Shown here piece by piece: positions 51,287 through 52,818 of a stretch of DNA of 64,000 bases. Every line of letters begins with the position of its first letter. Positions within the stretch are counted from its first letter, which is position 1. Position numbers and translations under genes: made by a program. This stretch comes from an uncultured bacterium. GTDB taxonomy: Bacteria; Patescibacteriota; Minisyncoccia; UBA6257; 2-01-FULL-56-20. The notes under the pieces are model-generated. The model was not told the DNA's origin, ran no database searches, and was given only the letters and a program-made list of their open reading frames with translations. The stretch is taken from the NCBI GenBank assembly GCA_963768625.1, contig CAVYIK010000003.1, forward strand, positions 625 to 64,624. The letters are read 5' to 3'.

Positions 51287-52818
<1,532 letters not shown>

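Follow-up and report, generated by a model that had tools for sequence, protein, structure and literature searches.

The 16S rRNA gene (rrs) encoded in the 64,000-nucleotide stretch analysed here, termed the window, lacks the anti-Shine-Dalgarno (anti-SD) sequence. The main start signal of the genes in this family is a −10 box positioned 6–8 nt before the ATG, i.e. of the leaderless type. Because the anti-SD is missing, the ribosome would be unable to form the canonical SD:anti-SD helix, the textbook start signal of bacteria. A minority of the genes is nevertheless preceded by SD-like motifs, which nothing in the 16S rRNA of the window can read. Together, we consider it probable that the family combines an anti-SD-less rrs of fixed tail with mainly leaderless and coupled initiation, and that its SD-like motifs are mostly carried-in DNA. 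As judged from its L19 protein, whose best named homologues belong to Candidatus Paceibacterota and Minisyncoccia, and from the anti-SD-less tails of Paceibacterota/Patescibacteria MAGs, the organism is a member of the Paceibacteria/Parcubacteria (CPR).

The 3′ end of the 16S rRNA gene and its conservation

A full-length match to the Rfam model RF00177 (model 1–1533) was obtained at window positions 52816..51287 on the minus strand, scoring 1376 bits at a gathering score of 50. The 3′ end is arranged in the order AAGUCGUAACAAGG-CACGCGUAGC-GGAA-GCUGUGCGUG-GAUCA-AUUAAACU, and the Rfam model reads GGAUCACCUCCUUu at that place. Within the alignment of the 3′ minor domain, AUUAAACU is placed against ACCUCCUUu of the model and contains no CCUCCUU; the minus strand at 51287–51300 reads exactly GGAUCAAUUAAACU. 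The Rfam alignment thus bears out the preliminary description, which had reported a 3′ end devoid of CCUCC after GGAUCA next to an otherwise canonical helix 45 with a GGAA loop and standard or wobble pairs throughout. As more than 99% of the re-annotated prokaryotic 16S sequences carry the anti-SD (20,495 taxids, compared to 128 convincingly without the consensus anti-SD; PMC6107228), its absence here is not due to chance. The mature 3′ end probably coincides with the end of the AUUAAACUA tail. Helix 44 (51350–51400, minus strand) is ~16 nt shorter than the Rfam consensus, fitting the reduced rRNAs reported for CPR.

A displaced anti-SD or 3′ exon was rejected, since CCTCC is absent from the 16S strand between 51300 and 48902, that is for 2.4 kb past the 16S, where the response-regulator, L19 and LAGLIDADG-like reading frames and a tRNA-Leu follow. 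The same stretch of this strand contains neither GATCACC nor ACCTCCTT. This extends the earlier observation that no displaced tail occurs in the ~800 nt downstream. Furthermore, the processing stem of the precursor begins 14 nt past GGAUCA, therefore leaving no room for a displaced anti-SD. An alternative CCUCC inside the 16S was likewise discarded, as the gene contains none besides the universal ACUCCUACGGGAGGC of the 340-region and the paired tip of helix 44. The single detectable rrs refers to the 64 kb of the window out of a contig of ~588 kb.

Table 1 Features of the window around the 16S rRNA gene and before SD-like genes.
Feature	Position	Strand	Basis or remark
16S rRNA gene, full length	51287..52816	−	Rfam model limits
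Helix 45, CACGCGUAGC-GGAA-GCUGUGCGUG, canonical GGAA loop	51300..51323	−	All pairs standard or wobble in model alignment
Universal GGAUCA, conserved	51295..51300	−	
Tail AUUAAACUA in place of CCUCCUUA	51286..51294	−	Invariant in window and seven relatives
AGUCG linker from tail to processing stem	51281..51285	−	GUCGA-like motif recurs in spacers of relatives
Putative pre-16S processing stem, 3′ strand (AUAAAUGGGACAACUAAAAAGCUCUUUGCUAU)	51249..51280	−	Cofold; sequence kept in all relatives
Putative pre-16S processing stem, 5′ strand (AAUAGCAGUAGAGAGUUUUUUAGUUGUCACCAUUUAU)	52916..52952	−	Cofold; aligned leaders of 7 genomes
Candidate 16S promoter: TTGACA, 16 nt spacer, TACACT, TG before −10	52990..53017	−	Consensus scan, 10/12 matches
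Extended −10 box TGCTATAAT of response-regulator gene, 7 nt before ATG	51246..51254	−	Overlaps end of processing stem
Response-regulator receiver gene directly after 16S	50864..51238	−	Pfam PF00072, 7.6e-23; order conserved
Ribosomal protein L19 gene, no SD	50565..50867	−	Pfam PF01245; start overlaps response-regulator stop by 4 nt
SD-like gene cacaAGGAGGgccuAUG, 362-aa protein of unknown function	27203..28291	−	Conserved structured leader ~28292–28345
SD-like gene uccAGGAGGcaugaAUG, OmpA-family protein	54227..55480	+	
ribA-like and pyrF-gmk genes, AAGGAG-type motifs	13907..16112	−	Motifs within upstream coding sequence, conserved in orthologous loci
Single SD-like genes (first two within the ribA-like and pyrF-gmk span)	15261–16112; 13907–15316; 5867–6331 (pilin-like)		

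The 5′ leader and 3′ trailer of the 16S cofold into a single long helix in the window as well as in two relatives (L002, L023), and from this modelling we infer an RNase III-type processing stem. Based on its consensus match, the TTGACA element upstream of the leader is likely the 16S promoter. A pyrimidine stretch of the 5′ leader (CCCCUCU hairpin) was dismissed as it is not conserved across the family. The processing stem overlaps the extended −10 box of the response-regulator gene. For the response regulator and L19, expression might have two sources, their own leaderless promoter and processed read-through of the rRNA. The stem motif AAAGCTCTTT is also present at 16468–16477 (minus strand) and in a related locus (L146, 195–204), in the leader of the small head gene of the ribA operon; near-matches to it number 14 in the window, compared to 5.3 expected.

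Homologous loci were identified with the L19 gene, ~420 nt downstream of the 16S, which served as the anchor also for taxonomy and synteny; the contigs of the relatives had been assembled independently (NCBI, ENA, JGI, Logan). Every relative with a recovered 16S 3′ end (seven lineages, nine contigs) carries GGAUCA-AUUAAACUA and none GGATCACCTCC, at 86–90% identity to the 16S of the window. The comparison with related genomes, which the preliminary description had proposed, thus returned the same tail seven times. In two relatives (L005, L006) helix 45 shows the compensatory variant CACCGG/CCGGUG, and the order L31 (divergent), 16S, response regulator, L19 is kept across the contigs. Whereas the nine nucleotides of the tail are invariant, the adjoining spacer is hypervariable among the relatives and contains different inserted hairpins; the tail is therefore inherited and under selection.

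More widely, we sampled 120 GTDB loci by the top of helix 45, a pattern of little lineage specificity genome-wide, the matches listed being mostly Actinomycetota and Chloroflexota. Among these listed loci, 112 read CCUCC, one from Limisphaerales UCUCC, and seven have A/U-rich tails without CCUCC (e.g. AUUAAAYU, UUUAAUUU, AUUAUUUU). In all seven helix 45 begins with CACG, and three are labelled Paceibacterota or Patescibacteria. The more distant Paceibacterota genomes (L079, L088, L097, L100, L118, L120) exhibit A/U-rich tails and no CCUCC. Contigs combining the same helix 45 with CCTCC belong to other lineages, because their 16S is just 70–74% identical to that of the window. In two metagenome contigs of distant Patescibacteria with the same helix 45 (L132, L135) the 16S ends in GGAUCACCUCAUUUU, and their degenerate anti-SD CCUCA may be an intermediate of loss.

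Several further features of the neighbourhood were observed. The 16S (51287–53348 region) is linked neither to 23S nor to tRNA-Ile/Ala and is flanked by the divergent L31 on one side and by the response regulator and L19 on the other. A free-standing LAGLIDADG-like reading frame (49814–50464, minus strand; 216 aa, weak Pfam match) is located ~800 nt downstream of the 16S 3′ end, ends 1–2 nt before, or overlaps, the 5′ end of tRNA-Leu(GAG) (49727–49812, minus strand), and is conserved downstream of L19 in three relatives (L005, L127, L129). The reading frame 44774–46522 (minus strand, 582 aa) comprises a GlyRS-like class II tRNA synthetase and ~115 residues of a MurA/EPSP-synthase N-terminus; its counterpart in L002 consists of two genes of 446 aa and 432 aa with a 4 nt overlap, and the fusion may reflect a frameshift, a pseudogene or an assembly indel in MurA. 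A DEAD-box helicase reading frame (20388–21473, minus strand) begins at position 17 of the Pfam DEAD model behind a 143-nt gap, so that its true start may have been missed or its N-terminus truncated. Signature motifs of L11/L1 were found neither in the window nor in the seven loci searched.

Leaderless and SD-like start signals

Start signals were analysed for 221 genes from 11 loci of the family, 72 of them in the window, with starts set by a codon-usage filter and a neutral first-ATG rule or taken from the gene calls of the sources. The −10 hexamers peak at 6, 7 and 8 nt before the start codon (19, 17 and 13 of the 221 genes, respectively), with neighbouring spacings reaching at most 3. A −10 box at leaderless spacing precedes 52 of the 221 genes, including 13 of the 72 in the window, compared to 7 of 825 internal ATGs. 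Likewise, the top unbiased upstream 5-mers were TATAA, ATAAT and TGCTA, and GGAGG in the Chloroflexota control. For the response-regulator gene, a −10-like hexamer is located 6–8 nt before the ATG in 8/8 genomes, with differing sequences.

A −10 box 6–8 nt before the ATG is the signature of leaderless mRNAs, from which we infer the transcription starts; the exact mature 3′ end and the initiation mechanism of the family are deductions of the same kind. Accordingly spaced boxes, often TGnTATAAT, would provide the first main route of initiation: transcripts would begin with the start codon or directly beside it, and ribosomes would bind the 5′-terminal AUG without a leader. The second main route, for operon genes that overlap or follow each other closely, would be coupling or re-initiation. 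In the window, 11 of the 20 internal genes start −4 to +6 nt from the upstream stop, which fits coupling or re-initiation.

SD-like 5-mers (AGGAG, GGAGG, GAGGN) at −16..−7 were found before 28 of the 221 genes (~1/8), compared to 7.7 expected from the average of the other 10-nt windows (Poisson P=1.4e-8), and in the window alone before 8 of 72, compared to 2.3 expected (P=0.0025). GGAGG occurs 8 times in −20..−1, compared to 0 and 1 in two upstream control windows, and CCTCC 0 times. Aligned by eye, the motifs follow the consensus AAGGAGG at 4–7 nt to the ATG. No gene exhibits both the SD-like motif and the leaderless signal, and several SD-like genes show a −10 box 20–40 nt upstream, suggesting short leaders. 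The enrichment is seen by position-resolved 5-mer counts, whereas a broad-window test with SD 4-mers was not significant. As anti-SD-positive Patescibacteria loci showed no SD enrichment (5/144 genes) they were unfit as positive control, for which Chloroflexota loci were used; the group as a whole therefore seems to make little use of SDs.

These counts substantiate what had been noticed in the sequence of the window, namely a leaderless promoter pattern, SD-like motifs before several genes, and the conflict of these motifs with a missing anti-SD, which holds for the window as well as for the family. Their consensus, AAGGAGG, is precisely the sequence that the lost tail would have recognised.

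Origin of the SD-like motifs

The family would have replaced its anti-SD by the fixed A/U-rich tail GGAUCA-AUUAAACUA, and the minority of genes with AAGGAGG-like motifs at canonical spacing is mostly accessory. The motifs before accessory genes were probably carried in with transferred DNA. Such baggage accounts for most of the SD-like motifs, and a few conserved ones remain unexplained. The more complete reading, that the motifs are mostly non-functional relics of SD-using donors, slowly decaying, and that the conserved few are constrained otherwise, e.g. by overlapping coding sequence or leader RNA structure, has in our view slightly less than an even chance. In the syntenic loci of relatives, just one of the 12 SD-like genes is found in at least three genomes, compared to 71 of the 91 other genes (Fisher 4e-6), and nine occur in a single genome each. 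The SD-like genes furthermore have a lower GC3, and of the five in L150, four are located in insertions that only this genome has. This accessory distribution favours motifs brought in with transferred genes.

Other constraints are apparent for part of the conserved motifs. The motifs of the ribA-like and pyrF-gmk genes, AAAGGAG and AAGGAGAUC, are kept in four loci and lie inside conserved coding sequence. The pyrF-gmk gene (13907–15316, minus strand) encodes a 469-aa fusion of OMP decarboxylase (pyrF) and guanylate kinase, its start overlaps the ribA-like gene by 56 nt, and the arrangement recurs in L146 and L148. The motif of the 362-aa gene forms the 3′ arm of a predicted conserved hairpin. 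This gene is syntenic in L149 (on the same contig as L129) and L150, and the leader, a hairpin with one compensatory pair followed by GAUCUCACAAGGAGGGAUC, is visibly more conserved than the protein (49–55% amino-acid identity). The leader reads ACAACCGYACUUUC-hairpin-GAAAGGAUCUCACWAGGAGGG (~28292–28345, minus strand; L149 9950–10000; L150 9950–10000), returned no Rfam match and may be a cis-regulatory RNA.

Three observations speak against the motifs being relics of transfer throughout. The gene after L19 keeps GGAG at −12..−6 in three genomes (L127, L129, L023), despite a protein identity of just 26% and divergence elsewhere in the leader; the ribA-like family is widespread in Patescibacteria and hence not foreign; and the sampled anti-SD-positive Patescibacteria loci, being without SD enrichment, would have been poor donors. 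The persistence of motifs down to 26% identity, in the four loci of the ribA-like and pyrF-gmk genes, albeit within coding sequence, or in conserved leaders such as that of the 362-aa gene argues for selection and a function, and hence for a reader. That AAGGAGG motifs are under selection before a subset of genes and are read without the 16S tail by an unknown reader is, in our estimate, rather unlikely; such a reader could be a protein associated with the ribosome, an RNA acting in trans or a small population of specialised ribosomes.

We regard it as improbable that an anti-SD is encoded elsewhere, on a second rrs, a split 3′ fragment or a trans-acting RNA, such that a subset of ribosomes or a composite ribosome reads the motifs. 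The canonical AAGGAGG at canonical spacing, conserved in some cases, would agree with this, and Alteromonas harbours two 16S types with different anti-SDs (PMC6107228). However, the window contains no orphan GATCACC or ACCTCCTT, no intergenic CCTCC element is conserved in five loci, the only contigs with the same helix 45 and CCTCC are the distant ones described above, and the tail without anti-SD is present in the window as in each of the seven relatives whose 3′ end was recovered. In addition, a single rRNA copy is usual for CPR genomes. An orphan anti-SD RNA was also rejected as a candidate: in the five loci, each intergenic CCTCCT/ACCTCC is the antisense of an SD-like motif or of rRNA, without conservation as an element.

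It is very improbable that the AUUAAACUA tail acts as a replacement anti-SD pairing with a new A/U-rich SD (UAGUUUAAU-like) before the start codons. The invariance of the 9-nt tail, next to a hypervariable spacer and in a 16S that otherwise differs by 10–13% within the family, does point to selection on the tail, but k-mers complementary to it are not enriched in −20..−1 compared to −40..−21 and −60..−41 (TTTAA 4 versus 6 and 4; GTTTA 1 versus 2 and 1; TAGTTT 2 versus 0 and 1), and distant anti-SD-less relatives have other A/U-rich tails. The exact complement of the tail, TAGTTTAAT, was found in L127 and L129, where it belongs, as the −10 region, to a TTGAC-N17 promoter ahead of a sigma-factor gene. 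As its complement is not enriched and its exact match is a promoter element, the tail is therefore not a replacement anti-SD.

Finally, a misassembly, chimeric join or deletion at the 3′ end of a gene truly ending in GGAUCACCUCCUU is hardly conceivable: rRNA genes are frequent break points of metagenome assemblies and a short Logan contig with identical L19 begins just past the 16S, but the junction and tail are identical in the relatives from varied samples and assemblers, whose downstream spacers differ and of which two have a compensatory change in helix 45, both flanks of the 16S are complementary and thus belong to one precursor, and the gene order is conserved.

Relation to known systems and implications

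The anti-SD motif has been detected in just 48% of Parcubacteria, the remainder overlapping the uL1-lacking group (Tsurumaki et al. 2022, RNA 28:1041; PMC9297842), and the core finding is hence a further member of a published kind. The organism falls into this subgroup by its Parcubacteria/Paceibacteria membership, based on L19 homologues, and by the absence of CCTCCT from the 16S 3′ end, and it shares with the subgroup the phylum-level affiliation, the loss of CCUCCU and the reduced rRNA (helix 44). The published account is one of detection rate and uL1 overlap only, and does not cover the replacement tail, the stem, the leaderless spacing or the residual SD-like motifs.

Anti-SD-less taxa are known elsewhere, with 128 in Amin et al. 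2018 and 15 in Lim et al. 2012 (PMC6107228). Anti-SD-less Bacteroidetes (Chryseobacterium, Blattabacterium, others), Mycoplasma and Candidatus Carsonella resemble the present case in having a normal helix 45 without CCUCC (PMC6107228) and no new SD complementary to the variant tail. In the lineages of Lim 2012 and Amin 2018, however, SD motifs were reported absent, whereas AAGGAGG-like motifs are ~3.6-fold positionally enriched here. The small-subunit rRNA of mammalian mitochondria is similarly without anti-SD, and most CPR have lost Era, which binds GAUCACCUCC (PMC10582724).

As in the leaderless-rich Mycobacterium, Deinococcus and Haloferax, many genes of the family have a −10 box directly before the start codon. 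These organisms keep the anti-SD, whereas the lineage of the window has lost it, and its leaderless genes are predicted from promoter spacing. In Flavobacteria and Bacteroidia, whose ribosome has a sequestered anti-SD (Jha et al. 2021, as cited in PMC9723584), most genes are likewise initiated independently of an SD. The anti-SD is reportedly present there but occluded by ribosomal proteins, whereas here it is deleted from the gene.

What is new here is the combination of an anti-SD-less 16S with positionally enriched and partly conserved SD-like motifs. Lineages without an anti-SD show the drift of bacterial initiation toward the leaderless mode of archaea and mitochondria. Annotation programs that rely on ribosome-binding-site scores will place starts wrongly in such genomes, where a −10 box at −7 is more informative. 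Should the SD-like motifs be functional, they are read by something other than the tail of the 16S; as transferred baggage, they would instead offer a convenient way to recognise genes that CPR genomes have recently acquired.
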